Origin: Thermoplasmatota archaeon
Lineage (GTDB): Archaea > Thermoplasmatota > Penumbrarchaeia > Penumbrarchaeales > Penumbrarchaeaceae
Direction of reading: 5' to 3'
Assembly: GCA_029762535.1 (NCBI GenBank)
Contig: JARVGK010000010.1
Location: forward strand, 4,602-68,601
Length of the DNA: 64,000 nt
Part shown: positions 4,521-31,363 of the stretch, one piece after another
Position numbering within the stretch: position 1 is the stretch's first letter
Layout: the number at the start of each line of letters is the position of its first letter
Notes under the pieces: model-generated
The model's input: only the letters and a program-made list of their open reading frames with translations
Databases searched by the model: none
Told to the model about the DNA's origin: nothing
Program-made: the position numbers and the translations under genes

Positions 4521-4535
4521 CCATAATGGTGTAAT

Positions 4536-5900: not shown

Positions 5901-5903
5901 GGC

Positions 5904-5935: not shown

Positions 5936-6014
5936 GGGGGAATGAAAATTGTATTTTCCTTCGTTGCATACCCAACAGTCACGATTTAATATATCCTCGC
6001 GTTGAGGGGGGTCA

Positions 6015-7379: not shown

Positions 7380-7399
7380 GCAACTCATTTCTGCGTTGT

Positions 7400-10258: not shown

Positions 10259-10385
10259 GGAGGGGAGCAGTTTTTCTACCTTTATTTATCTTTATTGCGG
10301 TCCTTTCTATTTAATAAAATTCATGGACGATCCCCGGATCGATCCATATCCTTTAGAATCGTGTATCCAACCCCTTATCCTCAGG

Positions 10386-13841: not shown

Positions 13842-16800
13842 ATCGAGGTCTCCTGCCTCCGTTTAAGGACGAATGCGGCACCTGCGATGATCACAGCGAG
13901 CACGAGGATGATCGCTATGACCACCAGAACGGGCGATAGCCCCCTCTGGTTCGAGTCCCGTTCGACAACGTTGAGCTTCAGGAGGATCGTGCTGGTGGAG
14001 GACCCGTCCGATGCGCTGACCTGTATCGTATGAGGGCCGGGGGCGAGGTCCTGGGTCGGCACCGAGAGCGTCAGGTCCCTTGATGAGTAGGGGCCCATAT
14101 CTACCGGGGACGGAGGGTCCACCTCGCATTCGATCCCTGCGTATACCGAGGCGGATACAACGCCGTTCCCCGCATTCTCAAGGATCAGCCTGAATACGGC
14201 AATGGAGCCGCTCTTGACTTCCACATCGGTGTTATCGCAGGTCAATTCCAGATCGGAGACCCTCTCCGGGGACACCTTCATGGACAGGTATGTCGCCGGA
14301 CCGCCGTCCACAACGGACACCGCCCTCAGCATGACCGCCTCTTCGGACCCCAAGAGCATCGATCGCGGCAATTTGACCTGGAATATGTGCCATTTGGTTT
14401 CCCCGGGACCGATCCGGACCGTCGAGTTCGGGGACAGTATAACCAGAGCGCTCCCGGATGAGACATTGACGGAGATCTCGTCCAATCCGTTACCCGTGTT
14501 CACTATCTCCACCTCGACCTCGACCGTCGATCCGGGGAGCGCCGAGATGTTAGAGGGGAGGTGGCACTCGAATCCAGGCATCCGGTCCACGGTGATGTGT
14601 ATGCCGAGATCGGATCGGCTCGACGGATCCCCCGCGGATATGCAGCTGACGTTGATCTGCTCGGTATCCCCCTCGAGGGAATCAACAGGGACCGAGATGT
14701 TAAGGTGGAGCATCCAGCTCTCTCCCGGGAGGACGCTCGCGCCCTCCGTGAAAAGGACTGCCTCCCAACCCGATCGGTTCTTCAACACGAGTTCCAGTTC
14801 GTCGGGGGCGTTCCCGGTGTTGACCACGGGGATGGCAAAGGATAGCATCTCTCCGGGTTTGGCGAAGGCGCGCACCTCGTCGTGGACCACGGTCAGCGAA
14901 TGGAGAGCCCCGACGCTAATGCGGACCTCGAGCGGGTCCGAGGCGTTCCCTGAGGATGATGCCATCAATGAGACGAGGTCCGTTTCGCCGAACGCAGCAT
15001 CGTCCGGGACAAGTAAGGTCACCGCTCCCGCCCTTTTCTCTGCCGGCACCATGCCCGTCCCGTTGAAATCGATATCACCGCTCCAGTTCACGAATGCGGC
15101 ATCCAGTGTGATGTCGTCCATGCCGTTGCCCGAGTTCTCCACGGTGATCATTATTTCCACGATATCGCCGGGTAGGGCATTCCGGTGAACATCATCCTCA
15201 AGTATCCTCACGCCGAAAAGGTGCCCCACTTCTGTCTCTATCGCGACCGTGACGCTCTTTTCGGGATCGCTCGCGGAGGTGAAGGACAAGAGAGCGGTGA
15301 ACGTCTCGTGATGCATGGAACCGTTCGGCGTCCTCACGATGACCTCAACCGCTCTGCTCCCTCCCGGTGGGACATCGGACCCGTCAAGGTCAAGGCTCAG
15401 ATCCCATCCTTGGGGAGGCGTGGCGTGTTCGAGGACTATGTCATCCACGATATCGCCGGTGTTGAACACATCGAATGAGTAAGAGGCGCTCTCCCCGGGA
15501 AGGGCGATCCCTTTGAGTTCCGATGCGGAGGATCCCACGCCAAAGGTAGGGTTCCGCGTCAATCTGATGGTCAGATTGTAATATGTCACATCGTACATCG
15601 ATACCTCAGGGAGGCTGGCCTGGATGTGGAGCCTGGTCTCGCCGTCGAAGCGCTCCAGCACGTGAAAGACCCCGAGCGAGGGCTGCTCCTCAAAAACCAA
15701 CTCAACGCTGAGCGGATCGGTGTAATCGTGAGGCAGGACGATGGGCTCGTAGAACAGGTCCTCTCCATGATGGTACATATCCCAGTTGGGGAACCACGTG
15801 TCCACGGAAGGCGGCCGATGGTAGCTGATGTTGAGCTCCATGGTCGCCCCATCGACCCTTTCGAACTCTACCCTTGTCAGGTTCAGCCCAGGGTCATGAT
15901 CGTTCCTGAAAGGGTCGTGCATAGGATCCCCATAATAGACCCTATTGGATTTACCCCCAAGCATGGCGGCCGCGGAAGGCCATTCCACGGGATCGAAATC
16001 CCCGGAGGGCAGTATGTCCGGAAGGTAGGCGCTCTCCCCCTCATTGTAAAGGCGTAGGTTCGGGCTGTTTCCCATGAACCCCATCACGACCTGGTCCAGG
16101 GATCTCTTGTATATGTCGCCCATGGGCTCATGGTATCTAAGAGCGTTCCACTGGTCGAAATAGCTGTTGTATCCGTGGTTCGCCCCGATGGGTGCAAAAT
16201 ATCCCGTGGCGTTGTCACCCAAAATCCTGTTGAAGAAAGCGAAATCATCTGACATCTCGTAGAATCTCACAACCCCTTCCGTGTTGCCGAAGGTCGCTGC
16301 GATATCCCCCTCGACCAGGGCCCTCTTGGGCACTCCTGAATGGCATGTCCCCGCGAACACGACCGCGGGGTAGAGATCTATCCCGCTCAGGTTCTCGGGT
16401 GTCAATCCCATCCGGGCATGGGCGGGATCCTCGATCTTCGCAGGGTCGTAGGTCCATACGGGCGGGTCAGGGTCGAGGTTCCCTCCTTTGAATAGCCATG
16501 TCATATGTGGATCCCCGTCCCCGCTGATGGTAACCATCCTCGATCCTTCGAGGTCCGCCGCGTTATCGAGGAAGAAGTCCCTTCCGGAACCAGTGTCGTT
16601 GACCTCCATATACAGGTGGACCTCCGAGTCCCTCACGATCTTGTGGAAGCTGTTCGAGCCGGTCACCCTCCAGTTCAGGGAGCTTGCGGAATATCCGGAC
16701 ACTTTCATAGGGAGCAGATGAGCCTCTTCCTCCTCCGCCCTGATGATGTTCTCGACGAAGGAGAGGGCGTCAGCGGGCGTCGCCCCGGTTATGTATCCCC

Positions 16801-17188
16801 ATGAGAAGTCAGGGAAGGGATCGTCGTCCAGCGTTGTCGAGTTCATGACGAAGGACCTGTGGAAGTTGATGTCCATCTCCAGGGGTCTGACGACCACGGC
16901 GACGTATCTGGCATCCATCTCCTTCAGGCCCTCCATGAGAGATGGGAGATCGTCCACGGAGAACTCGATCACGGTCCCGCCCCTGAATAGCGCCAATGCC
17001 TCGGCGGCATCCCTGTAGGGATCCGTCGAGTTCGCCGTTGTCGCAATGACGTACGTCGATGGCACATCCAACACATTAGGCGTCCCTTCGACGTTACCGC
17101 CTGAGATAAATGAATAAGGAAAAGAGGGGCCTGCTATGAGGAGAAGGACGACGATCGAGATCATACCAGGAACGTTTAGAGAATGCAT
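13829..17188 (-). CDS. Giant surface protein with signal peptide, an N-terminal clan-CD peptidase C25 (gingipain)-like domain, at least five CARDB-like domains, a TM anchor and a tail ending SIWEE.
   Basis: The N-terminal region (YVIATTANSTDPYRDAAEALALFRGGTVIEFSVDDL ... SGDGDPH ... AVVFAGTCHSG) resembles the C25 propeptide/catalytic region, with a His-then-Cys order. CARDB-like repeats: FDVFNTGDIVDDIVLE, VENSGNGMDDITLD, VVNTGNAPDELELV, IVNTGNGLDEISVN, ILENAGNGVVSASV. C-terminus VLVVIAIILVLAVIIAGAAFVLKRRQETSIWEE. Confidence 0.6.
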   Translation of the reverse strand: MHSLNVPGMISIVVLLLIAGPSFPYSFISGGNVEGTPNVLDVPSTYVIATTANSTDPYRDAAEALALFRGGTVIEFSVDDLPSLMEGLKEMDARYVAVVVRPLEMDINFHRSFVMNSTTLDDDPFPDFSWGYITGATPADALSFVENIIRAEEEEAHLLPMKVSGYSASSLNWRVTGSNSFHKIVRDSEVHLYMEVNDTGSGRDFFLDNAADLEGSRMVTISGDGDPHMTWLFKGGNLDPDPPVWTYDPAKIEDPAHARMGLTPENLSGIDLYPAVVFAGTCHSGVPKRALVEGDIAATFGNTEGVVRFYEMSDDFAFFNRILGDNATGYFAPIGANHGYNSYFDQWNALRYHEPMGDIYKRSLDQVVMGFMGNSPNLRLYNEGESAYLPDILPSGDFDPVEWPSAAAMLGGKSNRVYYGDPMHDPFRNDHDPGLNLTRVEFERVDGATMELNISYHRPPSVDTWFPNWDMYHHGEDLFYEPIVLPHDYTDPLSVELVFEEQPSLGVFHVLERFDGETRLHIQASLPEVSMYDVTYYNLTIRLTRNPTFGVGSSASELKGIALPGESASYSFDVFNTGDIVDDIVLEHATPPQGWDLSLDLDGSDVPPGGSRAVEVIVRTPNGSMHHETFTALLSFTSASDPEKSVTVAIETEVGHLFGVRILEDDVHRNALPGDIVEIMITVENSGNGMDDITLDAAFVNWSGDIDFNGTGMVPAEKRAGAVTLLVPDDAAFGETDLVSLMASSSGNASDPLEVRISVGALHSLTVVHDEVRAFAKPGEMLSFAIPVVNTGNAPDELELVLKNRSGWEAVLFTEGASVLPGESWMLHLNISVPVDSLEGDTEQINVSCISAGDPSSRSDLGIHITVDRMPGFECHLPSNISALPGSTVEVEVEIVNTGNGLDEISVNVSSGSALVILSPNSTVRIGPGETKWHIFQVKLPRSMLLGSEEAVMLRAVSVVDGGPATYLSMKVSPERVSDLELTCDNTDVEVKSGSIAVFRLILENAGNGVVSASVYAGIECEVDPPSPVDMGPYSSRDLTLSVPTQDLAPGPHTIQVSASDGSSTSTILLKLNVVERDSNQRGLSPVLVVIAIILVLAVIIAGAAFVLKRRQETSIWEE

Positions 17189-17414: not shown

Positions 17415-18920
17415 TCACCTGTTCCTCATCATCGAGTAATACCCGATCACGTCACCGTCATATCCAAGCCTGTTGAGGATCTCCCCCTTCAGCTCGAGCG
17501 ACCTCTTGAAGAAAATGAAGTTATCAAGGATCCAACCCGCTGCTGACTCCGTCAGGCCTCCCTGAAGCCATCTTTTTAGGAAGAATCCTTTCGATGTCAG
17601 ATAATATTTGTAGTACTTCTCGGCCTCCTTCCTCTTCCCTGGGGTGGAATACAGCATCATGGTGAGATTGATGTAGCTCTCGGGATAGTCCGGGTTCCTG
17701 TTTATCGCCTCCAGAAAGGCCTTGATCGCTTCAGGGTACTTCCCTTGAGAGGCGAGTACCTTCCCTCTCTCGTTGAAGGCGATCTCGTATTCCCCCGGTT
17801 CAAAGATGATCTCCCTGAGGGACCTTCCACGATCCATTTTAAAGAGGATGTTGTCAGAACCGCTGGACATCCCGAACCCGTTCACTGGATTCAATTCGAT
17901 GGCACGATCCACTTGTTGCAATGCATAGTGATCCTTACCGCTCCTGTGCATATCATCCGCCCTGATCAACGCTCTGCTGACCGCTTTGAGTTCGTGCTGC
18001 ATCTTCAGGTCCAGCGATCTCAAGGATACGATCGACCCCATGCCAGCAATGAGCAATAGAATTCCTGCCGCAGCGGAGATCTCGAACACCCTTATCGGAC
18101 CTACAATTCGAAGAGTGCACAAAGATACCGCTGAAACCAAGACCCCTGAGGACCAGATAAGAGAGGGCATCGATCTCCTCAAGGGGAACGCCGAAGAGCT
18201 CATATTTATCGCCATGATCGAGAAGGTCATCACCATCCCGATCAATAATAGGGTCTCATTTCGGAGCATCCAGTGATCGACGATGTCGGGTTTATCCAAC
18301 ATTATACGTGTGAGCCCGAAAAAAGAAGGCATGAATCCCAAAACGGGCAGAAAGAGACGATCTATCCGCACCTTCTTTATACCCAGGGCCGAAGCTATGA
18401 CCGCGGCCAAGCCCGATATGAGAAAGATTATGGCGATGGTCGAACTATCGGCCCGCGGCTTCGCGTTCAAAACATAGGATAGCGATGACGATACGACAAG
18501 CATGCCCATGATGAAGGAGAGAGTGAGCATAGGCTCCTTTCCAAAAGAAAGGGCCCTCGTCTGATAGATGATCGCTCCCGAACCCAGTAGGGAGAGGAAT
18601 AGCATAGGGAACACCATCCATGATGACCTCTCCATCGTCTCCGAATAGTGATCTCCCATTATCGGACCCGACGCATGGATGAAAAGAGATATCGCCATAC
18701 AGAATGTGGCGATCAGGAAGATCGTGTTGATGCTCGTCAGGTCATCCCTGGGAAATTTCCCCACACACCCCTCGCAAACAGGTCCGGAAGGGCTACTTGA
18801 ACCGCACATAAGGCATCCTCCTCCCTCCTCAAAGGGGGGATCCTTACGCGATGTCCTGCCGCCCTCCATTGTACGCTCCTTCAAGAGGTTCAATGGACCA
18901 CCACCCTTCGATGACCCCAC
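17415..18920 (-). CDS. Polytopic membrane protein with an N-terminal Cys4 zinc ribbon, ~8 hydrophobic segments and C-terminal TPR repeats.
   Basis: CLMCGSSSPSGPVCEGCVG near the N-terminus. About eight hydrophobic stretches counted by eye. The C-terminal ~180 aa carry TPR-like repeats (ALQQVDRAIELNP..., AIKAFLEAINRNPDYPESYINLTMMLY..., EAEKYYKYYL). Confidence 0.55.
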   Translation of the reverse strand: MGSSKGGGPLNLLKERTMEGGRTSRKDPPFEEGGGCLMCGSSSPSGPVCEGCVGKFPRDDLTSINTIFLIATFCMAISLFIHASGPIMGDHYSETMERSSWMVFPMLFLSLLGSGAIIYQTRALSFGKEPMLTLSFIMGMLVVSSSLSYVLNAKPRADSSTIAIIFLISGLAAVIASALGIKKVRIDRLFLPVLGFMPSFFGLTRIMLDKPDIVDHWMLRNETLLLIGMVMTFSIMAINMSSSAFPLRRSMPSLIWSSGVLVSAVSLCTLRIVGPIRVFEISAAAGILLLIAGMGSIVSLRSLDLKMQHELKAVSRALIRADDMHRSGKDHYALQQVDRAIELNPVNGFGMSSGSDNILFKMDRGRSLREIIFEPGEYEIAFNERGKVLASQGKYPEAIKAFLEAINRNPDYPESYINLTMMLYSTPGKRKEAEKYYKYYLTSKGFFLKRWLQGGLTESAAGWILDNFIFFKRSLELKGEILNRLGYDGDVIGYYSMMRNR

Positions 18921-20269
18921 CGCAGCTCGATCCCCCTGCGAGTAACGTACATGAAATATAGATATGCAGTGTGGAATCCATTGATCAGATCGTAAACGGT
19001 CTTAAGTGGCAGATACTGGACGAGGCCCCTAGTCTCTTTATACTGGACGAGGATCAAGACCCTCATAAGGAAATAGAACGCTACGAGAATGACGCTCCGC
19101 AATGCGATGAACTCGAGGAGCGAGTGATAGGACAAACCCGTAAAAAGCAACGTTATGGTAAGTAAGAACGATACAAGGAAAATAAGGGCGGACAATGTCG
19201 TGGAGATCCATGTGAAATAAGTGTACAACGCCCAGGGATTTCGCCAGAGATGCCATTTGTTCTCCCTCCACGCCTGGAACTGACCGAAAATCCATCTCCT
19301 TCTCTGATTGAACCATCCGGTCCATGAGACCGGCGCTTCGGTATACGACCTGGCACCCGGTGCGGCCCTCGTCGTATATCCGGTGGACAGGATCGACATG
19401 GTCAGGTCGCAATCCTCAACGACCGTTCTATCCAAAGGCGGATACATACGAGCAAGGTCCGTTCTCATGCCGAATATCGGGCCAGGGGCTATAAGGACGG
19501 ACCCATCCTCGCTCTGGCACGTCCTTATCACATGCTGGGTGATTATGTATTCGAGCTGCTGAAGCTTCGTTAGGGTTCCGGCAAAGGTGTTCCTTATCGT
19601 CACGAAACCGCCAACAATCCCGGCGTCCGGGTATGCCCTGAAGGTCTCTACTATCTCGGAGACGGCGTTCTTGTCCATCGTGCTGTCCCCGTCGGTCATA
19701 AGTACGATAGGCCCCGTGGCTTTTTGGATCCCGTAGGTGAGGGCCGAGGCCTTGCCCCCGTTCTCTTTATGATATATCTTAAGGTCCCTGCGTCCCGATC
19801 CGCCCTTGAATATACTGGATACAGACCATGTATTGTCCCTGGACCCATCGTCGATCACCAATACCTCTATCTCTCCCCGATAGGTCTGATCGTAACAGTT
19901 CAGTATCGCCCTGCCCACGTTGAGCCCTTCGTTGTAGCAGGGAATGATGATTGATACCTTTGGATATCTCGATCGGGCGAAGGGATCCGGTCCTGAACCC
20001 GTTCCTGTCCTCTTTCGGAACTTCCCGGAAAACGCCTTTGAAATGGTCGAACGTACCGCCAGATATGTGAACGGGAAGACGTTCGCTAGAATGAAGAACG
20101 TGTAGTATAGGTCCAAAATGAGATAGAGGGGGCCCCCTTGATGGATCTCCTCGGCGTCAAGGACCAATTTTCCGTTGCCTATGGAAAGACCCAGATGTGC
20201 GGGGATAGCGATAAGGGGCAGTGTCAATACCATTGCAAGCATTAGGCATACAACGATGGATATCCTCAT
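18890..20269 (-). CDS. Membrane-integrated processive family-2 glycosyltransferase (cellulose/chitin/PNAG-synthase-like).
   Basis: GT2 signatures: IIIPCYNEG, VLVIDDGSRDNT, MTDGDSTMD, and the processivity motif Q-x-x-R-W (NQRRRWIFGQ). TM segments flank the catalytic domain. The start is probably Met9 at 20269 (MRISIVV...), which gives an ATGA overlap with the stop of the upstream GHL10-like gene. The ORF-track start is 20293. Confidence 0.75.
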   Translation of the reverse strand: MRISIVVCLMLAMVLTLPLIAIPAHLGLSIGNGKLVLDAEEIHQGGPLYLILDLYYTFFILANVFPFTYLAVRSTISKAFSGKFRKRTGTGSGPDPFARSRYPKVSIIIPCYNEGLNVGRAILNCYDQTYRGEIEVLVIDDGSRDNTWSVSSIFKGGSGRRDLKIYHKENGGKASALTYGIQKATGPIVLMTDGDSTMDKNAVSEIVETFRAYPDAGIVGGFVTIRNTFAGTLTKLQQLEYIITQHVIRTCQSEDGSVLIAPGPIFGMRTDLARMYPPLDRTVVEDCDLTMSILSTGYTTRAAPGARSYTEAPVSWTGWFNQRRRWIFGQFQAWRENKWHLWRNPWALYTYFTWISTTLSALIFLVSFLLTITLLFTGLSYHSLLEFIALRSVILVAFYFLMRVLILVQYKETRGLVQYLPLKTVYDLINGFHTAYLYFMYVTRRGIELRWGHRRVVVH

Positions 20270-23200
20270 GGAAGGACCACCCCGTCCGACCATTCGATAT
20301 CCTCCTCGAGTAACTCCTCGAACTCCACTTCTTCGTCCCAGATGATCTCCTCTTCCAGCTTCGGGGCCAGCTCATCGGGCGTGTCGATCATGTCCATGAC
20401 GGGATCGTCCACATCTTCCGGGGCGGATATCATGGACACGTATTCGTCCAGGTCCTCGTCCATCTCCATAACATCCTCGTAGAGAGAGCCGTGTATCGTT
20501 CGATGCGAACTGCCATCGTTCACGCGAGGGACGCTCATCGAAGGGTATCTCGACATCAAAGGAAGGGGTCCGCCGCCCATGTTACTGGAGAGGATCCTGA
20601 GCCTACTGCCCATATCCGCAGTCCCGGATGGGTACAGATCACCACATGTATCGATGCAGAATTCATCATCTTCTGCGTCGGCAGGGTTCTTGGGCCCTCT
20701 CCTATATCTTATGATCAGGATCGCGATCGATGCTGCCGTGACAAGGAATGACATTACCAAAAGGGAGAATATGGAGGCCAGTAAGAGGGACGAGGCGGTC
20801 TGTACCTCCTCGATAGAGGTCCGGTTGGCATCATCGGGCGGTGCGATTATTACGACCTGGGTCACCGTAACGTTCTCTATCGGCGGAAGGAATACATCCA
20901 CTTTGGAGAGGTCCGTGAGATCCCTTGCCAATCCGGTGTTGAGGTCCGTCGAAACGGTCGCATGCGTCTCCGCGTAGGAGAAAATGCCGTGATCGTCGCT
21001 TACCCAAAGACCGATCCGATAATGACCCGGATCAAGGGTGAGCGAGATCGATGGAAGGTTCGAGATGTTCACACCATCCAGGGACCATGTCGTTCCCATC
21101 ACCCATCCGTCCGCATCGAACGAACCAGAGGATGAGAGTTCTAAGGATCCCCCACGATAACAATCGATATTACCCGTGATCACGGGGATAGGGGCCATGT
21201 TGCTCGATGATATCTCAGCGGAGAAGCCCCCGACATGCCCAGCCCTATCCACGGCCCTAACTTTTATACTGATGGTGCGTCCGGGGTCCCTTCTCATCCA
21301 GGTCCAGTTCCGATCGGTCGTTCCCGTCATTTCCCAATACGGACCTCTGAGGGACCATACCTCGTAATGGTCTATGCCGGAACCGGGGAGGTCCATGGAC
21401 CGCTTCCAACTTATGTTGTATTCGAGGTTGGTATTATTCCTCACCGATATCATGGTTTGAGATGGGGCGGTCGGGGCATTGAGGTCCACCAATACTGGAA
21501 CGCTATCCTCTTCTGTGCTCAGACCCGCGTTGCTCTCAACGGTTAGCTTCAATGTGTATCGGCATCCCTCGGTCAGTGACCCCTGGTAGGTAAAAGATGT
21601 GCCGTTGACCATAATATTTTTGAAGACCACGCCTCTGTTTCCGTTACCCGCATCGTATAACAGTGTCGCGAGGGAACCCTTGATCCCCGAAACCGGAACG
21701 AAGGTCTCCTTCCATCTCCATGTGATTTGTTCCTGAGTGATGATGGAGGATCCCGCATCTGGCGTGGATATCCTTGGATTGGACCTGTCAAGGCACAGTT
21801 CGACCCGCCCGAACTCGCTTCGCGAACCGAACTCATCCACCGCTCTAACCTCGATCAAGTGTTCTCCTTCAACGAGTCCCTCCATCGTAAGGACTGTCGA
21901 ATCTGTGACGGATATATCCCCCCCGTTCAACCTCCATTCGTAGAACGAGATCCCCGCCAGACCCTCGATCGGATCCCAGATGATATCGACCGGATCCGAG
22001 GAGGTCCAACCTTCAGGTGCACCATACGGCTGCGGAGTTGATGGAGGCGGTATATCGCTGTGATATCGAAGGTCCTCGACCGTCCTGTTATTCTGTGTGG
22101 TGAACCGGAGGAAGAATGACATGTCGTGATCGAGCACCACGATCTTCAGCAGCACCCTGTTGATGCCATGCTTCAAACTCACCATTGTGGTGTTCTGGTC
22201 CGGTCCGACATCCCGTTCTTCATCGATGACAAGTGCGACCTCTCCGTTGATCCACACTTTGATCGCATCCGAGCTCCCTATCCTCATTTGGACATCCATA
22301 TCACGAGGGGATATGACGAACATATGGGAATACGCGACCGAATAAGATGTGTGACCGTACACAAGGTCCAGGTCGATGAGGTCCCTGTCCATGGTGGCGT
22401 CGGTCCACGGCCTTCCTCCGGTTATCGTTCCCGCTCGGGGCACTATTTCCGCCTCGTTCTCGAAGAACGTCCTTTCGAGAAGGCCCTTGGAATGACCTGT
22501 AAAGAACGTTCCTGCGGAAAGCCATGTCCTGACGCTGTAAGGCATCCATGAAAGGTGTATGGACCCAATGGTTATGTTCGATGCATCTTCGAACCTGGGG
22601 ACCACCCGGATGTATCTTATGTTCCCCAACCATTCGGGATGATCGTCGAGATGGATCGAAACTATGCCCCACCTGGCCTCCTTCATGACCTCTGTACGGA
22701 CCATCATCGGCTCCGAAAAACGCGTATGATCGTTGGACCAGTAGACATCGATGAAACAACTCTCATCATCTATGGCCGCGTCGATCTCGATAACGTTGAT
22801 ATCCTTCGCATTGATGCCCAATAGCGGCGACATAAGCCCGGCTTCCTTGGAATTCGCTATCGTCCATCTACCGCCTCGGGGGTAATGATGGCCCGAATCG
22901 GTAAGCCTCCAACCTTCCCTGTCTTGGTCATGCTCGAAATCCCATTTCAGATCGGTCACTGCCGTGGTCTGGTTCTTGAGCGGACAACTGGCATATTCCT
23001 CAAAGGGGTCTCCGACGAGGGCCTGACCATAGGACGGATAGCTCCTGAGGAACTTGTAAGAGAAGAGACATACGCCCAATGCGTTGCTGGACAGTGCGTA
23101 GTTGACCTGCGCGTTCATGGTCTCGATCCCGACGGTCTCGTTCGGGACCGAGCCATGGGCGGTGTTCCCAGGCACATATACGTAAGTGCCAGCAACGACC

Positions 23201-24138
23201 GGGCAGGAATGTTGATCGATGTTGAGATCGATCAACTGTCTATAGGTATCAAAAGAGGTCGTATATGTCATGGGGGTCACGAAATCGACCAAGCCCGTCT
23301 GCGACCAAAGCTCAGAATCCTGAAAGATGGAGTACTGCCTGCTGTAGCTGTTGGTGAATATGTCGGCTCCTATCCAAGCATAAGGACGAACCTCATTTAT
23401 CGCGTCGGATATTGCCATCATGCACTCCGTTATCTGCTGCCTTCTGAAAGCGTTGAAATCCGTCCAATTCTCCTCGTAGTAGATCTGGATGGAATACTCA
23501 TCGTAGCCGTAGTTCGATCCGGGATAACGGATCGTATCCAATTTTATCCCATCCAAGGGGTAATCGGCCATGAGCTGTCCGGTGACGTTTGCGAGATAAC
23601 TCTGGACCTCGGGCAGGGTGGGATTGAGCCACGAGGGGCTCCGATAACCGCTGCTGCTGACGCATCCCCATTCCGGGTGTTCTCTCAAGACTATGGGATC
23701 GATCAAGGTATGGAACCAGGGCATCACATGTATACCGTACTTGTGAGCCTCTCTTATGAGGTCCATGAGAGGATCGAAATCCCAGGCGAGCTCGCTGAAC
23801 CTCGGGTGATAGGACGAATTGTAGAAGACACCGAGATAGTTGCCGTTTATCAAGGGGCTCAGGCAGTTCACGTTGGAGCTTCTGGCGGTTTCGACGACCT
23901 TCAATACCTCGGAATGGTTGATGATCTGATATCCCTCGAGCCACATGGACCGATACTGGAACAGCCTTGTATCGTTCCCGCCGTCCTGCTGGCCGTAGCC
24001 TCCCGGGGAGAAGGTATCGTGGACGGGTTCGTCCCTTTCTGCATCGGCGAGTGATGTGAAGGGGCCGATGAGCGAGGACAATGACAACAATACGATCGTG
24101 AACTGAAAGCACATCGCCCCCCTCATTCTATCTCTCAT
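20266..24138 (-). CDS. Giant membrane-anchored protein with an N-terminal GHL10-type (family-10-like TIM-barrel glycosidase-like, DUF187-type) domain. This is followed by lectin/ConA-like, FN3/PKD-like beta-sandwich domains, a TM anchor and a ~200-aa acidic cytoplasmic tail.
   Basis: N-terminal region (YRSMWLEGYQ...FDPLMDLIREAHKYGIHVMPWFHTL...DGIKLDTIRYP) resembles GHL10/YngK-like hydrolases. Hydrophobic anchor LLLASIFSLLVMSFLVTAASIAILII followed by an Asp/Glu-rich tail ending EELLEEDIEWSDGVVLP. Confidence 0.5.
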   Translation of the reverse strand: MRDRMRGAMCFQFTIVLLSLSSLIGPFTSLADAERDEPVHDTFSPGGYGQQDGGNDTRLFQYRSMWLEGYQIINHSEVLKVVETARSSNVNCLSPLINGNYLGVFYNSSYHPRFSELAWDFDPLMDLIREAHKYGIHVMPWFHTLIDPIVLREHPEWGCVSSSGYRSPSWLNPTLPEVQSYLANVTGQLMADYPLDGIKLDTIRYPGSNYGYDEYSIQIYYEENWTDFNAFRRQQITECMMAISDAINEVRPYAWIGADIFTNSYSRQYSIFQDSELWSQTGLVDFVTPMTYTTSFDTYRQLIDLNIDQHSCPVVAGTYVYVPGNTAHGSVPNETVGIETMNAQVNYALSSNALGVCLFSYKFLRSYPSYGQALVGDPFEEYASCPLKNQTTAVTDLKWDFEHDQDREGWRLTDSGHHYPRGGRWTIANSKEAGLMSPLLGINAKDINVIEIDAAIDDESCFIDVYWSNDHTRFSEPMMVRTEVMKEARWGIVSIHLDDHPEWLGNIRYIRVVPRFEDASNITIGSIHLSWMPYSVRTWLSAGTFFTGHSKGLLERTFFENEAEIVPRAGTITGGRPWTDATMDRDLIDLDLVYGHTSYSVAYSHMFVISPRDMDVQMRIGSSDAIKVWINGEVALVIDEERDVGPDQNTTMVSLKHGINRVLLKIVVLDHDMSFFLRFTTQNNRTVEDLRYHSDIPPPSTPQPYGAPEGWTSSDPVDIIWDPIEGLAGISFYEWRLNGGDISVTDSTVLTMEGLVEGEHLIEVRAVDEFGSRSEFGRVELCLDRSNPRISTPDAGSSIITQEQITWRWKETFVPVSGIKGSLATLLYDAGNGNRGVVFKNIMVNGTSFTYQGSLTEGCRYTLKLTVESNAGLSTEEDSVPVLVDLNAPTAPSQTMISVRNNTNLEYNISWKRSMDLPGSGIDHYEVWSLRGPYWEMTGTTDRNWTWMRRDPGRTISIKVRAVDRAGHVGGFSAEISSSNMAPIPVITGNIDCYRGGSLELSSSGSFDADGWVMGTTWSLDGVNISNLPSISLTLDPGHYRIGLWVSDDHGIFSYAETHATVSTDLNTGLARDLTDLSKVDVFLPPIENVTVTQVVIIAPPDDANRTSIEEVQTASSLLLASIFSLLVMSFLVTAASIAILIIRYRRGPKNPADAEDDEFCIDTCGDLYPSGTADMGSRLRILSSNMGGGPLPLMSRYPSMSVPRVNDGSSHRTIHGSLYEDVMEMDEDLDEYVSMISAPEDVDDPVMDMIDTPDELAPKLEEEIIWDEEVEFEELLEEDIEWSDGVVLP

Positions 24139-26923
24139 TCGCTACCCCCTCCTCCATGACGGCTTTGTCGTTCCTCCTCCTCCTTTTGATAAGGGTCACG
24201 GTCTCCGCAATGGCGATCAGGACAATGACGACGACACAGGCGGACATCGCATAAGGCAGCCAACCCCAGTCCTTTCCCTCCGGCTCAACGGTCACGTTCT
24301 CCTCGTAAGGCACGGTGACGTTCTCGATGATCTGGATGTCCTCATATGTCCGATGTTCGATGATCACCGTCTCAAAGGTGGGAAGGACAACGATCGATAT
24401 TTCCTGTACCATGATGTTCCCCCAAACATCGGTGATGGTCAGGACCACCTTGTAAACACCGACGGACCCGTAACTGTGATAGACAGACTCGCCCTCGGCG
24501 CGACAGCCGTCCCCGAACGACCATGAGATGCCGAAAATTCCGGAATCGTCATTTATATCGCATGCGGAAAACCTTATTGTCTCGTTAACGAGATAGCACC
24601 CTATCAGATCGTCGGGGATCGACATCCTATCGAGCAATTCCGTCCCCGCCAGATACGTCTCGTTGAGGGGGAGCGGATCGGGATCGTATGATATCGAACA
24701 CGTAGGGGGGGTGATATCGAGTACGTCGACATGGACGGTCGTGGAGTTCGAGTTTCCCTCGAGATCGAATAACTCCAATGTGAAATAGTGCCTTCTTGCC
24801 CGAGGCTCCCCGATGACCAGGACGCTCTCTCCGATAACCAACGTGTCATCATCCAGATGCCACAGTATCCGGTCCAGACCGACATTGTCGCAGGATGCGG
24901 AGGCATCAAGGACGATATCCTCACCCAGAACGATACTGTTCTCGTATTCGATCATCAGGACCGGAGCGGTCCTGTCCCTGACGGTGACGTTCACGACATC
25001 GAAACCCCGGTTCCCGGACCTGTCGGTCACCGTGAGATGAACCGGGTAGAACCCCGGGTCCTCGAAAACGTATCTGAGATACATCCCGTAAAGTGTCCTC
25101 TCCTCTACCCTCCAGGTGTAGTTAAGGCCGAGATCGTTATCGTGGCTTTTCGATGCGTCCAGATAGACGATGCTGTCCTCCCATACGATCATATCCTCTC
25201 CACCGATGGCGACCGGGGGCATATCGTCCTTGATCACGACCTGCATTTCTGAAATGTCGCAAAAACCCAGGCTGTTGATGACGGTCAGGGTCACCTTGTA
25301 GATCCCGGGATAGAGATAAGTGTGCTCGGCGATCGGCGTGTGATGGAACAGATATGTCCCGTCGCCGAAGTCCCATGAATAGGAGACGATCCCGTGAATA
25401 TCCCAGGATCCCGATCCGTCGAACGTTATCGGCTCACCCTCCATCGCCTGAATGGTGCCCGAAAGCGATGAGAACGGAGCGACCCTTACGGTCTTCGTCC
25501 TCATCACGACCGATCCTGCGTCATCGGTGACCTTGAGGGATACGTTGTAATATCCGCCCCTCTCATAGACATGCAACGGGTCGATCTCATTGGAATGGGA
25601 TCCGTCCATTAGGTCCCAATCTATGGAGGCGATATGTCCATCGATATCGTAGATATATGCTGGCCCAATCCTAATAGCGGTCCCTATCATGCCCTGGACA
25701 TCGTCACCGATCCTCACGAAGGGGGGGAGATCGCCCACGGGCCCATCCCTGACCAGATCCACGTAGGATCGGGACAGGGGGTCGTCCTCTCCGAGCCTCC
25801 ATATGCTTATCCCGCCGATCATATGCCTCCTGACGATATCCATCTGATGGAGAAGGCTCTCCGAATCGGTGTAATGATGGGCCCTCAGGGACCCGGACCT
25901 GTCCCTGTACACGAAGTAGGGCGTTCTCGATGTCACGTTCCACGATCGCTCGATATCAAATTCCCGAATCAAGTTGCGCGTCGATCTGTATGTGTGGTTC
26001 TCCGCCGTTCCGGTAGTGGTCCCGTCGTTATTTATGGGCCAATCATAGCCGAACTGCGCTATGCCGAGTATCAGTTTTTCCGGGTCGATAACGGAAGCGG
26101 CATAGGAAACGACCTGGTCCATCCATTCGTAGGAGGTCACCGGGCCCGACACCTCACATGTGGACCAGTGCAGGTTGTAGGCCATCAATCGGATGAAATC
26201 CGCCCTCTCCCCCAGACCCGGATAATCGTATCCGGCAGGACCGTATCGATCATCGGACCCTGAGGTCTTCGGGAAGACCGAAACGTGAAGGACCTTGCCA
26301 TAGATGTGCATGGCCTCCGTCAGGTTGCCTATGAAATCGACAAATGCGTCGCGGTCCTCGGTGTAGAGGGATTCGTAGTTGATCTCGAGTCCGGAGTAAC
26401 CATTTTCCAGGGTGAGCCGGACCAGATCGTCTATGTGGGCCGTCCGTATCGATGCGTTCCTGACGATGTTTCGGACCGTTTCGGGATCGTGCAGGTTCGA
26501 GACCAGGGGGATCACTTCGATATCGTTCTCATCACAGAGGTCCATGTATGCTTCGTGATGTGACGGGGTGAAGACCCGAACGATGCTACCGTCCTGCATT
26601 GTCCGATACCAGAAAGGGGACAGGGAATCCAGAGTGTCCGCCCATTCCTCCATTCCCGACCAGGACGATGCCTCCCATGGAATGGTCCATCCGGATACCG
26701 TGAATGGGGGATCCCCGGCCCTTGTCAACAATTCATTTTGATCTTCATTTAGACCGGTGACATCCACCATGGACGATATGAGGATCAAGGCGAGCAAGGT
26801 ATATGTCAGGGATAGGACGACTTTCTCTCTTTCTCTGAAATTCTTCAGGAGTCGGATTCGGGACATATACCCTCGTAATTTTATAGCTCTGGGTATGTAT
26901 ATAAGAGTGCCGTCCTCTTTCAA
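24128..26923 (-). CDS. Membrane-anchored protein with an N-terminal GH18-like (chitinase/YaaH-type TIM-barrel) domain, several PKD domains and a C-terminal TM anchor.
   Basis: GH18-like catalytic block ENGYSGLEINYE, a variant of DGxDxDWE with the terminal Glu retained. Classic PKD domain SYSWDFGDGTY...YKVTLTVINSLG plus at least three more PKD-like repeats. N-terminal TM/signal VVLSLTYTLLALILISSMV and C-terminal anchor MSACVVVIVLIAIAETVTLIKRRRRN. Confidence 0.55.
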   Translation of the reverse strand: MKEDGTLIYIPRAIKLRGYMSRIRLLKNFREREKVVLSLTYTLLALILISSMVDVTGLNEDQNELLTRAGDPPFTVSGWTIPWEASSWSGMEEWADTLDSLSPFWYRTMQDGSIVRVFTPSHHEAYMDLCDENDIEVIPLVSNLHDPETVRNIVRNASIRTAHIDDLVRLTLENGYSGLEINYESLYTEDRDAFVDFIGNLTEAMHIYGKVLHVSVFPKTSGSDDRYGPAGYDYPGLGERADFIRLMAYNLHWSTCEVSGPVTSYEWMDQVVSYAASVIDPEKLILGIAQFGYDWPINNDGTTTGTAENHTYRSTRNLIREFDIERSWNVTSRTPYFVYRDRSGSLRAHHYTDSESLLHQMDIVRRHMIGGISIWRLGEDDPLSRSYVDLVRDGPVGDLPPFVRIGDDVQGMIGTAIRIGPAYIYDIDGHIASIDWDLMDGSHSNEIDPLHVYERGGYYNVSLKVTDDAGSVVMRTKTVRVAPFSSLSGTIQAMEGEPITFDGSGSWDIHGIVSYSWDFGDGTYLFHHTPIAEHTYLYPGIYKVTLTVINSLGFCDISEMQVVIKDDMPPVAIGGEDMIVWEDSIVYLDASKSHDNDLGLNYTWRVEERTLYGMYLRYVFEDPGFYPVHLTVTDRSGNRGFDVVNVTVRDRTAPVLMIEYENSIVLGEDIVLDASASCDNVGLDRILWHLDDDTLVIGESVLVIGEPRARRHYFTLELFDLEGNSNSTTVHVDVLDITPPTCSISYDPDPLPLNETYLAGTELLDRMSIPDDLIGCYLVNETIRFSACDINDDSGIFGISWSFGDGCRAEGESVYHSYGSVGVYKVVLTITDVWGNIMVQEISIVVLPTFETVIIEHRTYEDIQIIENVTVPYEENVTVEPEGKDWGWLPYAMSACVVVIVLIAIAETVTLIKRRRRNDKAVMEEGVANER

Positions 26924-27068
26924 CCCTTTATATAATAATAATAATCAAAGCATCACGTTCCCTTGATGCGGGATTGTATAGGGATCGGACGCTTGCCGAT
27001 GAAATACCCTCCGGCCGCCTGGAGGATCACCAGAAGGATGACCAACAACGATCGTTCATTTTACAGGG

Positions 27069-29198: not shown

Positions 29199-30512
29199 AT
29201 GGAATTGAAAGGATCGATCCACGGGATCCCCCTGATATTGATATTGATATTGATATTCTCGAATATTGGATCCCTGGCGAACGGCACCATCGAGGCGAAT
29301 TTCACAGGTACATGGACCGAATCCCTCGAGGACCGGGACGGGGACGGATCGGCGGAAGCTCTTGTCATAGGGGTCGATATCGACGTTTACGTCCCCGGGT
29401 CCTACGGCATTTTCGGGTCCGTGAACGACGGCGAGATCGTATCGAACTCGGGACTGGTCTCTCTGGGATTGGGAAGGCATCGGATCGATCTCAAGTTCCC
29501 CGGCGCCGATATCATCACCAGAGGCACCTCCGGACAGTACGACATCAAGCTCGAGCTCTACACCTCCGATCCCGGCTCCAACGCCCGGAGCAGGGAGATA
29601 AAGACGAAGGAAAGCTACGACCCGACCGATTTCGAAAGGGGTGAGGGCTTCCCCGGCACGTCCGTCACTGTCGAGGGCCCCGAGGTCCTGATCAACAACC
29701 CCCTGGTCGAGATAAGGATCAACACCACCAGGCCCCTTCTCGTCTTCTCGTATCCCGGCGAGCTCTCGAAAACGACGAGGGCCGCCCTCGAGTGCATCAG
29801 CCTTGTAGCGTACGACGATCAGGACGGGAACACGGCCTACGACCCCGGGGTGGACACCGTGAAGTACAGTACCGATCTGGCCCGGGACGTGGACTGGAAA
29901 ATGAACCTGGACCTCTCCAGGGGGTTCAGGATCGACCTCCAGGGCATGGCCCCGATGCGCAGGACCGGTTCCCCATCCCTCGTCGCCTGGGCGTCCCTGA
30001 CCATCACCATGGACTCGACGACGATAGATCCCCAGGGAAGCTCTCAGAAGTTCGACATAGACATAGAGCTGTTCCAGCCACTCGACTCCGACGGGATCGC
30101 CATAGTCCAGGAGCTCCGCGACGAGAGCGGCGGCCATGAGTTCCAGTATTCGGAATCCGATCCCTACAAGACCATCTCCCTCGTGGACCCATCGGGCAAG
30201 GTCAACGGCATGTACACCTGGGTGGACGAGATACTCATAGGGGAGGCGTCGGCGGACACCCTTTCATCCGCCAAAACTGGCCACAGGCTCGATGAGGACA
30301 CCGCCATGGTCGTTTTCAGCTATCCGCTCAACGGGGACACGCTGCAGGTGTTCCACGATCCAAGGGTGGGCATGGACCCTAAGATGCCCGAAATACGGGG
30401 CGAGGACCCGTTCCTCTCGAACAGGCCATTGCTGATGGGCGCGGGCTTTCTGTTGGGGGCCTCTCTGGTCATAGGGGCCGTAATCATAACACGATTGCGG
30501 AGGAGGTGGTGA
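29199..30512 (+). CDS. Secreted/membrane-anchored hypothetical protein with an N-terminal signal peptide and a C-terminal TM anchor.
   Basis: N-terminus MELKGSIHGIPLILILILIFSNIGSLANG. C-terminus PLLMGAGFLLGASLVIGAVIITRLRRRW. No recognised catalytic motifs. Confidence 0.55.
   Translation: MELKGSIHGIPLILILILIFSNIGSLANGTIEANFTGTWTESLEDRDGDGSAEALVIGVDIDVYVPGSYGIFGSVNDGEIVSNSGLVSLGLGRHRIDLKFPGADIITRGTSGQYDIKLELYTSDPGSNARSREIKTKESYDPTDFERGEGFPGTSVTVEGPEVLINNPLVEIRINTTRPLLVFSYPGELSKTTRAALECISLVAYDDQDGNTAYDPGVDTVKYSTDLARDVDWKMNLDLSRGFRIDLQGMAPMRRTGSPSLVAWASLTITMDSTTIDPQGSSQKFDIDIELFQPLDSDGIAIVQELRDESGGHEFQYSESDPYKTISLVDPSGKVNGMYTWVDEILIGEASADTLSSAKTGHRLDEDTAMVVFSYPLNGDTLQVFHDPRVGMDPKMPEIRGEDPFLSNRPLLMGAGFLLGASLVIGAVIITRLRRRW
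29234..29257. repeat. Hexanucleotide microsatellite (TGATAT)x4 inside the signal-peptide coding region; it encodes LILILILI.
   Basis: cctgatattgatattgatattgatattctc read directly in the sequence. Confidence 0.8.
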
Positions 30513-30515
30513 GAC

Positions 30516-30821
30516 TTGGACTGGGTGGAGACCGCATCCATACTCAAGGACGTCCTCGTGGGGATACTGATCATTCTCTCCATGGCCCTGACGACGATAG
30601 GAGCCCTGGCATGGAGGAGGAAAAGGGCGACGAGGCTTCTCTGGGTCACGATCGCCTTCGCGCTGTTCCTGGTCAAGGGGGTCTCCCTTGCCCTTGGGTT
30701 GTACGTGCTGGGGATGATCTCGGTCCCCAGGGGTTTCGCGGGGACCTTCGACCTGATGCTGATCCTCGATGTGCTGATACTGGTGATACTCTACCTCGCC
30801 CTCTTCAGGAGGACGGGCTGA
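30516..30821 (+). CDS. Small integral membrane protein with three predicted TM helices.
   Basis: Three hydrophobic segments. There is a 3-nt gap to the upstream gene and a 18-nt gap to the downstream regulator, which suggests an operon. Confidence 0.5.
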   Translation: MDWVETASILKDVLVGILIILSMALTTIGALAWRRKRATRLLWVTIAFALFLVKGVSLALGLYVLGMISVPRGFAGTFDLMLILDVLILVILYLALFRRTG

Positions 30822-30839
30822 AAAAGGGCCGGACTGATC

Positions 30840-31361: not shown

Positions 31362-31363
31362 GC

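Follow-up and report, generated by a model that had tools for sequence, protein, structure and literature searches.

A compact four-gene unit in the order GH18, GHL10, GT2 and gene 4 is conserved in an uncultured Thermoplasmatota group. We studied it in a Thermoplasmatota archaeon (GCA_029762535.1, contig JARVGK010000010.1, forward-strand positions 4,602 to 68,601; this 64,000-nt stretch is called the window below). The unit is probably an operon by which a beta-linked, GlcNAc-containing polysaccharide is made in a synthase-dependent manner and processed at the cell surface. A unit of this kind, coupling the synthesis of a GlcNAc polymer with its trimming at the surface, is so far undescribed for archaea.

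Table 1. Features of the four-gene unit (window coordinates; topologies and domain functions are predicted).
Feature	Position	Strand	Basis
Candidate promoter of the unit (inferred)	26925..26950	-	AT-rich, TATA-like; ttgattattattattatataaagg; read from sequence
Gene 1, putative type I membrane protein, 912 aa	24128..26866	-	Pfam, hydropathy; NCBI MDG6224773
GH18 catalytic domain, aa ~60-385	25712..26689	-	PF00704; motifs SGLEINYE, MAYNLHW
PKD stalk of gene 1	24287..25711	-	PKD_4 at 7e-58, 4 stretches
Gene 2, putative type I membrane protein, 1290 aa	20266..24138	-	Pfam, hydropathy, AF2; NCBI MDG6224772
GHL10 TIM barrel, aa ~60-378	23005..23961	-	
Two beta-sandwich domains after the barrel, aa ~393-690	22069..22962	-	AF2 secondary structure; without known family
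Ig-like stalk, about four domains (Big_13, FN3, PKD)	20869..22041	-	
TM anchor of gene 2, aa 1125-1143	20710..20766	-	Hydropathy analysis
Acidic cytoplasmic tail of gene 2, about 147 aa	20269..20709	-	Composition, hydropathy
Gene 3, membrane-embedded GT2 synthase, 459 aa	18890..20269	-	Pfam, NCBIfam, HAS1 match, invariant motifs
QRRRW motif of GT2, aa 322-326	19292..19306	-	Translation and orthologue alignment
Gene 4, 484 aa	17415..18869	-	ORF, hydropathy, predicted helices, TPR_11

Gene layout and conservation of the unit

The initial annotation described a module of three co-directional genes with overlapping ends. The ORF listing and translations bear out these genes on the minus strand (24128-26923, 20266-24138 and 18890-20293), but a fourth coupled gene at 17415-18869 had been overlooked. 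NCBI gene models of this MAG favour shorter starts, with 912 aa for GH18, 459 aa for GT2 and 1290 aa for GHL10. The 931 aa first given for the GH18 protein match the full ORF, whereas the NCBI model starts at ATG 26866 and not at TTG 26923.

The junctions overlap or almost abut, which supports one unit. The GH18 stop (TAG, 24128-24130) lies within an 11-nt overlap with the GHL10 gene, which starts at ATG 24138; an alternative GHL10 ATG is found at 24126, 1 nt past the GH18 stop. The GHL10/GT2 junction reads ccATGAgg, with the GT2 ATG at 20269 overlapping the GHL10 TGA at 20266-20268. This is the ATGA junction that had been foreseen for a GT2 start at 20269, the start of the 459-aa NCBI model. 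The gene 4 ATG follows 20 nt past the GT2 stop and is preceded by GGAG. An AT-rich, TATA-like stretch located ~60-85 nt upstream of ATG 26866 is likely the promoter of all four genes.

Checked in related Thermoplasmatota, the gene order is kept across species representatives and metagenome contigs, the latter showing the same four-gene arrangement. The unit, composed of GH18-PKD, one to three copies of GHL10, GT2 and gene 4, recurs with different flanking genes; in loci with enough flank, the order persists down to 40% GT2 identity among unrelated neighbours. A GHL10 gene lies directly upstream of GT2 in 14 of the 15 GT2-bearing GTDB species representatives, a GH18 gene is present in all ten representatives whose sequence extends beyond the GHL10 gene(s) on the upstream side, and gene 4 comes after GT2 in 12 of the 13 genomes with downstream sequence. 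Overlapping junctions also occur elsewhere (4-nt overlaps in L001 and L004), and a single 2117-aa ORF in L017 combines GH18 and GHL10. Because the arrangement recurs in independent genomes, it is not a product of chance.

Two glycosidase-type proteins with predicted surface anchors

For the gene 1 protein, a signal/TM segment is predicted at the N-terminus, ahead of the GH18 domain; four to five PKD domains connect this domain to a C-terminal TM anchor, behind which lies a short basic tail. The GH18-like barrel with a SGLEINYE variant motif and at least four PKD domains proposed for this protein earlier are indeed found: Glyco_hydro_18 (PF00704) scores 94 bits against a Pfam cut-off of 29.6, the motif is present and PKD_4 matches four stretches. 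The top PDB matches are YdhD (3cz8, 2.7e-27), SleL (4s3j) and YaaH (4s3k). Judged by sequence, the domain is a member of this spore-cortex-lytic group, and its nearest solved relatives are hydrolases of beta-1,4 GlcNAc/MurNAc glycan. The motifs [DE]-I-N-Y-E and MAYN[LE]HW are invariant among orthologues, as is the catalytic Glu. Asn occupies both classic Asp positions (N-x-E for D-x-E and Y-N for Y-D). LysM-containing GH18 proteins of Firmicutes also show the N-x-E variant, which is therefore a natural form.

In the gene 2 protein, a predicted signal peptide precedes the GHL10 TIM barrel, which is followed by two predicted beta-sandwiches and a stalk of FN3/Ig/PKD type; a TM anchor then leads to an acidic tail that is probably cytoplasmic. 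Its assignment as a 1290-aa protein with a GHL10-type hydrolase-like domain holds (79.6 bits against a Pfam cut-off of 27.9), as do the FN3/PKD domains and the anchor. The lectin-like domains described initially do not; the region instead holds the two beta-sandwiches, for which the Pfam search gave no match even at E<=1 and which are kept in orthologues at 24-59% identity. The barrel is the best-conserved part of the protein, with up to 73% identity. By predicted fold, the barrel is most similar to Cwp19 (20% identity) and next to the PNAG hydrolase domain (GH153) of PgaB/BpsB (PMC5933820). Asp196, the proposed key residue of Cwp19, is a Thr here and Ala or His in paralogues. Several acidic residues at the barrel end are invariant, among them an Asp at the end of beta-5. 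Glycoside hydrolase activity has been shown for Cwp19 (PMC5765458), which another report terms a peptidoglycan lytic transglycosylase (PMC6016235). For GHL10 elsewhere, conversion of starch to maltose is reported (PMC9967864), and substrate specificity is unsettled in the literature.

By Pfam, PDB and fold comparison, both hydrolase-like domains thus belong to enzymatic families and not to non-enzymatic ones. Catalysis by the two domains is plausible from their sequences; we put it no higher because Asn replaces two Asp residues in GH18 and Thr replaces the Asp196 of Cwp19 in GHL10.

These anchored glycosidases might serve foraging, digesting chitin of foreign origin or the peptidoglycan of bacteria in sediment, while GT2 and gene 4 would be linked to them for another reason, for example a protective coat. 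The closest characterised relatives of both domains act on peptidoglycan (for Cwp19, as reported in PMC6016235), and the window is rich in giant surface hydrolases (C25 peptidase, M14 peptidase, GH127-like barrel), which fits a polymer-degrading lifestyle. We nevertheless consider foraging unlikely. The hydrolase genes show strict linkage to the synthase, with overlapping ends, across 40-93% identity, in none of the loci does the cassette include a regulator, a sugar transporter or a GlcNAc kinase/deacetylase, and the two Asp-to-Asn changes in GH18 are unlike efficient chitinases.

The GT2 synthase

GT2 passes the Pfam cut-offs for Glycos_transf_2, Glyco_tranf_2_3 and Glyco_trans_2_3. The D, DxD, TED-like and QxxRW motifs ascribed to it in the initial annotation correspond to DDG (140-142), DGD (193-195), ED (285-286) and QRRRW (322-326). 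Residues D140-D141-G142, D193-G194-D195, E285-D286, Q322, R323, R325 and W326 are invariant in 22 orthologues, with R or K at position 324, and the C-terminal TM helices are likewise invariant. The best NCBIfam score is obtained for PgaC_IcaA (129.8 bits, residues 105-418), followed by NodC (95.4 bits), with CelA far lower; GT2 is well under the equivalog cut-offs (129.8 vs 422 for PgaC_IcaA, 95 vs 550 for NodC). Pfam Chitin_synth_2 reaches 21 bits, which is under its cut-off. Over the QxxRW-containing region, the best solved match is HAS1 (8smm, 1e-14, residues 171-381).

The nearest relatives of GT2 outside its orthologues are bacterial, and all three that were looked up adjoin CE4 deacetylases. 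In two of these loci there are also genes for large TPR proteins, that of L025 being BcsC-like, and a BcsE_N-domain protein is encoded in L024; on account of these neighbours, the bacterial loci look Pga-like. Several GT2 relatives are fusions with CE4, and in a rough NJ tree the archaeal clade sits among CE4-linked bacterial synthases.

The second-best score, for NodC, a protein of similar size, raises the question whether GT2 makes a short or non-polymeric product, such as chito-oligosaccharides, a glycolipid or a protein-linked glycan. In that case, binding or adhesion would be the role of the GH-like proteins, in keeping with their deviations at positions held catalytic in relatives and with their long PKD/FN3 stalks, which are typical of adhesins. 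Set against this are the invariant GH18 catalytic Glu and GHL10 barrel-end acidic residues, together with the strong conservation of the GHL10 barrel, and no Nod-type modification genes are present. We therefore rate this scenario as improbable, slightly more so than foraging. A dolichol-phosphate sugar synthase for N-glycosylation with a coincidental QxxRW is very improbable: many GT2 enzymes are similar to its GT-A half, Dol-P-Man synthase 5mlz among them (E 7e-8 by sequence, 2e-13 by profile), but such matches are limited to residues ~100-230 (sequence match 103-220), the Q-R-x-R-W, E-D and C-terminal helices are invariant, and NCBIfam gives a Dol-P hexose transferase 16 bits against 130 for PgaC_IcaA.

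Gene 4 and the acidic tail of GHL10

In the gene 4 protein, eight TM helices separate a CxxC...CxxC zinc ribbon at the N-terminus from a TPR domain at the C-terminus (TPR_11, 4e-10). Its structure model (pLDDT 43) is too poor for use beyond the helices, and about 15 full-length relatives are found among 1.84 billion representatives. The eight helices and the N-terminal Cys4 ribbon would place the TPR domain in the cytoplasm.

The acidic tail of the gene 2 protein, predicted to be cytoplasmic and initially given as 200 aa, is present but shorter (Table 1). It contains 27% D/E, has a net charge of -30 and ends in the Trp-acidic motifs IIWDEE and DIEWSD. The final 50 aa carry such motifs in the window tail and in 13 of the 14 tails from main-clade orthologues. 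In the distant clade, L005 and L020 have them at the C-terminus of gene 4 instead, and the GHL10 tails seen in this clade are devoid of them. The tail may still couple to the cytoplasmic face of the synthase, as first suggested, but the co-encoded TPR domain appears to be the more obvious partner. Based on composition and predicted topology, we propose a contact between the two.

Proposed mechanism

In the polysaccharide operon that we favour, GT2 would take up a UDP-sugar, most likely UDP-GlcNAc, at the cytoplasmic side of the membrane, polymerise it processively and pass the chain outward via its own transmembrane channel. The lineage-specific gene 4 protein may act as a membrane partner or scaffold of the synthase. 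The TIM barrels of genes 1 and 2 would be held above the cell surface on four to five Ig-like domains, where GH18 and GHL10 may cut, trim, release or transglycosylate the polymer. Docking of the Trp-acidic tail end on the gene 4 TPR domain could join the outside enzyme to the inside synthase.

The PNAG/chitin-like module of the initial annotation is partly supported. None of the three outcomes that it named as refuting came about, but PNAG and a chitin-like polymer are not separable, and the linkage signals conflict, with GH18 suggesting beta-1,4 and the GH153-like fold beta-1,6. A CE4 deacetylase, a PgaD/IcaD-like partner and a UDP-GlcNAc supply gene were found neither in the cassette nor among the window ORFs scanned.

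Comparison with known systems

Bacterial PNAG systems (PgaABCD, IcaADBC) share with the archaeal unit a PgaC/IcaA-like membrane GT2 by best family score, a TPR protein in the same operon and tightly coupled genes. Unlike them, the archaeal unit does not include a CE4 deacetylase, PgaD/IcaD or an outer-membrane porin, its TPR domain is part of an 8-TM protein and predicted to be cytoplasmic instead of periplasmic, and its GT2 is far under the equivalog cut-off. Giant size, cell anchoring and Ig-like stalks distinguish its hydrolases, which include a GH18, a family not known to act on beta-1,6 linkages.

Clostridioides difficile Cwp19 belongs to the same Pfam family as the archaeal GHL10 and is likewise an enzyme anchored at the cell surface, with its gene in a surface-polysaccharide locus (PMC5765458). 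In contrast to Cwp19, the distantly related archaeal barrel has Thr for Asp196 and an invariant beta-5 Asp instead, carries two extra beta-sandwiches and is anchored by a TM helix with an acidic cytoplasmic tail, not by CWB2 repeats.

TPR domains are known to bind acidic peptides, as in the recognition of the Hsp70/Hsp90 EEVD by Hop or CHIP and of Trp-acidic cargo motifs by kinesin light chain. By analogy alone, the archaeal TPR domain, co-encoded with tails ending in EEWEVEE, EWEVDD or DIEWSD, may resemble these systems; a difference is that in the distant clade (L005 and L020) the motif is on the TPR protein itself.

Finally, the QRRRW, ED and DxD motifs of the archaeal GT2 are common to CHS, NodC and class I HAS, and among solved structures HAS1 matches it best across the catalytic and interface region. 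The sub-cut-off Chitin_synth_2 score sets it apart from chitin synthases, and the spore-cortex-lytic affiliation of GH18, with N-x-E and Y-N, is unlike classic chitinases. The pairing of a GlcNAc synthase with GH18 enzymes mirrors chitin synthesis and remodelling in the fungal cell wall.

A four-gene cassette conserved in Thermoplasmatota

Three consecutive genes on the minus strand had been assigned to GH18, GHL10 and GT2 families by the initial annotation, with overlapping ends. Pfam matches above the curated cut-offs bear out all three families, and the DNA sequence itself bears out the junctions: the TGA of the GHL10 gene is overlapped by the GT2 ATG at 20269, in ccATGAgg, and the GH18 TAG at 24128-24130 lies within the GHL10 start or 1 nt before it. 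Downstream of the GT2 follows a further gene, gene 4 (Table). The four proteins are deposited at NCBI as MDG6224773, -772, -771 and -770, with shorter starts in the deposited gene models (GH18 912 aa, GT2 459 aa); their database names, like those of the GT2 relatives, are generic only.

Table. Coordinates of the cassette and of other features, in the window unless a locus (L-number) is named
Feature	Position	Strand	Remarks
Gene 1 ORF (GH18)	24128-26923	-	ORF scan and translation
Gene 2 ORF (GHL10)	20266-24138	-	ORF scan and translation
Gene 3 ORF (GT2)	18890-20293	-	ORF scan and translation
Gene 4 ORF	17415-18920, ATG at 18869	-	GGAG ahead of ATG; downstream of GT2 stop
TATA-like AT-rich stretch	upstream of gene 1		Sequence reading
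226-nt gap	after gene 4 (last gene)		
Three giant predicted surface proteins	7400-17188	-	Directly downstream of cassette
1544-aa protein	36023-40657	+	DUF7948, SBBP beta-propeller repeats, five FN3 domains
1272-aa Peptidase_C25 (gingipain-type)	55937-59755	-	CHB_HEX_C, Ig-like domains
ORFs of 336-596 aa	29127-30137, 30264-31367, 48894-50516, 50552-52342	-	No Pfam family at E<=0.001
L001, PKD-only 885-aa protein	520-3177		Directly upstream of GH18 gene
L002, tandem GHL10 duplication	2533-10001		
L017, joined GH18-PKD and GHL10 ORF	3651-10004		2117 aa
L023, lone GT2 homologue	8669-11143		CP070629.1
L005, distant-clade gene 4	3387-5975		Trp-acidic motifs in C-terminal extension
L020, distant-clade gene 4	11646-13616		Trp-acidic motifs in C-terminal extension
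L019, distant-clade gene 4	11607-13919		No Trp-acidic motifs seen
L035 (Firmicute contig), two GH18 proteins	6202-7488; 9608-10948	-; +	VNFE and DINYE motifs

About 37 GT2 orthologues share 42-93% identity, and every source-named one comes from a Thermoplasmatota MAG. Beyond them, similarity falls sharply, to bacterial proteins that share about 36% identity along 60% of the length. Among 185,579 GTDB species (one genome per species) there are 15 GT2 loci, all from Thermoplasmatota or an 'uncultured archaeon'. Conservation of the gene order had been proposed as a check, and the order holds: scored by tblastn with the window's domains, 14 of the 15 loci have a GHL10 gene immediately upstream of the GT2, all ten whose sequence reaches past the GHL10 gene(s) on the upstream side have a GH18-PKD gene, and 12 of the 13 with downstream sequence have gene 4. 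The exception, L023, is a GT2 homologue standing alone on a 3.58-Mb Thermoplasmata chromosome; it is 47% identical to the window's GT2, carries an N-terminal extension of ~450 aa without a Pfam match, and has no GH18, GHL10 or gene 4 neighbours.

Context look-ups at L001 (the closest genome representative to the window), L002/L003 and L004 show the GH18-PKD gene, one or two GHL10 genes, the GT2 and a TPR protein of ~500 aa, with the same short overlaps as in the window and unrelated flanks. A metagenome scan that took the GH18 motifs as seeds found further full copies, L026-L032. In L017, a single ORF spans both the GH18-PKD and the GHL10 gene; the junction runs from TM anchor through KKRGGKDKK to a signal-like helix, a topologically coherent order. 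Either the two genes are genuinely fused, or a stop codon was lost and translation restarts internally. L001 has a PKD-only gene ahead of its GH18 gene, which the window lacks.

Giant surface proteins are unusually plentiful in the window. The three encoded next to the cassette comprise a protein with CarboxypepD_reg and PKD domains, one with a LanC-like/GH127-like barrel and CARDB/Ig domains, and a choice-of-anchor T protein with Ig_VWA7; they are not kept beside the cassette in other genomes.

The GT2 synthase and its bacterial relatives

The GT2 matches Pfam Glycos_transf_2, Glyco_tranf_2_3 and Glyco_trans_2_3 above their curated cut-offs. The D, DxD, TED-like and QxxRW motifs claimed for it are all present (DDG 140-142, DGD 193-195, ED 285-286 and QRRRW 322-326), as in processive GT2 enzymes, and none of the 22 orthologues departs from the key residues of DDG, DGD, ED and Q-R-x-R-W. 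Hydropathy places TM segments at residues 3-21, 361-379 and 390-408, plus weaker ones. The best-scoring NCBIfam family is PgaC_IcaA (TIGR03937; 129.8 bits, residues 105-418), followed by NodC (95.4 bits) and CelA (25 bits). All NCBIfam scores are far under the equivalog cut-offs, and with a curated cut-off of 422.3 bits for PgaC_IcaA, the GT2 is not an equivalog of PgaC/IcaA. Of the solved structures, only the HAS1 chain (PDB 8smm; 1e-14, residues 171-381) gives a match that spans the QxxRW region.

CE4 deacetylases adjoin all three of the nearest bacterial GT2 relatives that were looked up, and large TPR proteins adjoin two of them, including a BcsC-like one in L025; a BcsE_N-domain protein is found at the bacterial locus L024, and several GT2 relatives are themselves fused to CE4. 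In a rough neighbour-joining tree without canonical CesA, CHS or NodC references, the archaeal GT2 clade is monophyletic, has a long stem and falls among these bacterial proteins. This answers in part the phylogenetic check proposed in the initial annotation. The relatives speak for GlcNAc as the sugar used by the GT2. Because GT2 enzymes are inverting, a beta-linked product is to be expected.

Two predicted surface-anchored proteins

By hydropathy, each GH-like protein has a signal-like segment at its N-terminus and a single TM helix in its C-terminal part, after which basic residues come, so that the GH18 and GHL10 barrels should be located outside the cell. There, a stalk built from four to five Ig-like domains is predicted to carry each barrel at its tip.

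The GH18 domain (Pfam PF00704, 94 bits against a gathering cut-off of 29.6) is accompanied by four PKD_4 stretches. Its closest solved relatives, YdhD (3cz8, 2.7e-27), SleL and YaaH, are spore-cortex peptidoglycan hydrolases. The domain departs from the classic GH18 motifs DxxDxDxE and MxYD. In 12 of 12 orthologues the first reads x-G-x-[DE]-I-N-Y-E, with the catalytic Glu retained and the preceding Asp invariantly replaced by Asn, and the beta-6 motif reads MAYN(L/E)HW, where relatives carry Y-D. Two GH18 proteins of a Firmicute contig (L035; metagenome scan), which also have LysM or peptidoglycan-binding domains, read VNFE and DINYE. N-x-E, thus found in the subgroup's Firmicute members too, is a natural form and no sign of decay, and the archaeal GH18 may derive from this spore-cortex-lytic subgroup. 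The idea of an inactive lectin was dropped on the same grounds, together with the invariance of the catalytic Glu. N-x-E is the form used by GH85 enzymes, and the engineered D-to-N chitinases ChiA D313N and ChiB D142N reportedly favour transglycosylation; by analogy with both, the GH18 could possibly act as a transglycosylase.

The GHL10 domain (Pfam PF02638, 79.6 bits, above the gathering cut-off) is the best-conserved part of the gene 2 protein, at <=73% identity. The protein also has weak FN3 and PKD matches in Pfam, and its two predicted beta-sandwiches match no Pfam family even at E<=1, which leaves the lectin-like domain claimed for it unsupported. The predicted fold resembles Cwp19, the GHL10 enzyme of Clostridioides difficile, and then PgaB, with GH29, GH42, GH5 and other barrels as the next neighbours; PgaB is likewise among the top structural neighbours of Cwp19 (PMC5765458). 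No sequence relationship to PgaB or GH153 was detected, and the likeness is one of fold only. Cwp19 Asp196 has been put forward as a key residue equivalent to PgaB Asp466, its catalytic role being a proposal only (PMC5765458), and GH153 relies on one Asp, located where beta-4 ends (PMC5933820). In a profile alignment, the archaeal L-D-T aligns with F-D195-D196 of Cwp19; the first Asp is invariant, and the Asp196 position at the end of beta-4 is held by Thr, Ala or His. The archaeal family has a different invariant Asp, in GAD at the end of beta-5. GHL10 genes are duplicated in tandem in L002, L013, L018, L020 and L021, and L020 possibly has a third. Within each pair, the beta-4 motif of one copy deviates (HLDAC, RMDHL or KLDHI versus KLDTI), which suggests that the copies are paralogues with diverged function.

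Gene 4 and the Trp-acidic tails

The gene 4 protein begins with a CxxC...CxxC motif and ends in a TPR region (TPR_11 at 4e-10). Hydropathy gives seven hydrophobic segments plus an eighth at about residues 173-192, and eight long helices appear in a low-confidence AF2 model (pLDDT 43) built from a four-sequence alignment and used for the helix count only. From the eight helices, the positive-inside pattern and the Cys4 ribbon, we infer that both termini should be cytoplasmic. The TM block has no Pfam match, even at E<=1. Word-indexed searches returned 4 proteins for gene 4 and 8 for the N-terminal part of GHL10. Searched exhaustively with HMMER, 1.84 billion representatives yielded no more than about 15 full-length relatives of gene 4, at 25-32% identity, and all remaining matches were generic TPR proteins; the membrane part of gene 4 therefore falls in no described family.

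The cytoplasmic tail of the window's GHL10 protein comprises 147 aa with a net charge of -30, and has no Pfam match even at E<=1. Such tails are unalignable between orthologues (tblastn with the window tail gave no match), yet those of the main clade are acidic. Trp-acidic ends such as EEWEVEE, EWEVDD and DIEWSD are found on the window's own tail and on 13 of the 14 tails from main-clade orthologues. In the divergent loci of the distant clade, the GHL10 tails (L019-L021) are short, basic or near-neutral and without this motif, and the gene 4 protein is longer, at 656-862 aa, with a long C-terminal extension that bears Trp-acidic motifs in L005 and L020 (Table). The motif appears to have shifted between the GHL10 tail and the gene 4 protein, and thus seems to belong to the cassette. 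TPR domains elsewhere bind EEVD or W-acidic peptides; by analogy, the TPR domain of gene 4, predicted to be cytoplasmic, would be the most obvious partner.

Discussion

The most economical reading of the cassette is a synthase-dependent system for a beta-linked, GlcNAc-containing surface glycan, in which two anchored enzymes would process the polymer and a membrane protein would serve as scaffold. For the linkages in the polymer, the GH18 argues for beta-1,4 and the GH153-like fold for beta-1,6.

A more specific version, which taken as a whole we regard as a long shot, is that the product is a structural envelope glycan, resembling chitin or peptidoglycan strands and remodelled in an autolysin-like manner, in this Thermoplasmatota clade. 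A synthase of the bacterial PNAG type would be combined with two membrane-anchored remodellers, a spore-cortex GH18 and a Cwp19-type GHL10, both descended from peptidoglycan hydrolases of bacteria. Their Trp-acidic cytoplasmic tails would be held by the TPR of the lineage-specific 8-TM partner, and this contact would tie the remodelling enzymes outside physically to the synthase inside. If true, archaea would have in this cassette an analogue of complexes that pair cell-wall synthesis with autolysins. Cultured Thermoplasmatota are mostly wall-less.

Alternatively, the surface glycosidases may forage on foreign chitin or peptidoglycan. The closest solved relatives of the GH18 do act on peptidoglycan, but both glycosidase genes keep their place ahead of a synthase from locus to locus, and we consider foraging unlikely. 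Readings of the cassette as an adhesin, or as the source of a short-oligosaccharide product, seem rather improbable. A Dol-P-sugar synthase is very unlikely and was rejected, as the GT2 scores 16 bits against the NCBIfam Dol-P hexose transferase versus 129.8 for PgaC_IcaA, matches Dol-P-Man synthase (PDB 5mlz) and other GT-A enzymes in its N-terminal half only, and has an invariant QxxRW.

To our knowledge, synthase-dependent polysaccharide systems have been described almost entirely from bacteria, and we found neither this cassette nor an archaeal PNAG, chitin-synthase or synthase-dependent system in the literature. The surface-glycan system proposed here looks like a reuse of bacterial cell-wall and biofilm enzymes by archaea, and bears on the making of the cell surface in uncultured Thermoplasmatota from sediments. 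The four genes are a concrete target for expression, with which one could test if archaea produce a GlcNAc polymer in this way, and if extracellular enzymes can be tied to an intracellular synthase through a TPR domain and a short motif in a tail. The actual function of GHL10 enzymes, and of GH18 in its N-x-E form, could be approached with it as well.

The cassette unites a synthase, putative polymer-modifying or -cleaving enzymes and a putative TPR scaffold in one operon, the set that defines synthase-dependent systems. Domain scans of its genes found no PilZ, GGDEF-I-site or porin domains; a porin is not expected, since the archaeon has a single membrane. Polysacc_deac_1 (CE4) is absent from the cassette genes and the larger window ORFs scanned, and UDP-GlcNAc genes from the latter. 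A CE4 deacetylase is also missing from L001, L002/L003 and L004, whereas it is present beside the bacterial GT2 relatives. With a GT2 under the equivalog cut-off, no CE4, no PgaD/IcaD and the TPR across the membrane, the cassette stands outside the Pga/Ica family. The predicted cytoplasmic location of its TPR differs from that in the Pga, Bcs, Pel and Alg systems. In its overall logic, however, the cassette would work like the Pga, Bcs or Pel systems, and like a fungal chitin synthase paired with GH18 enzymes.
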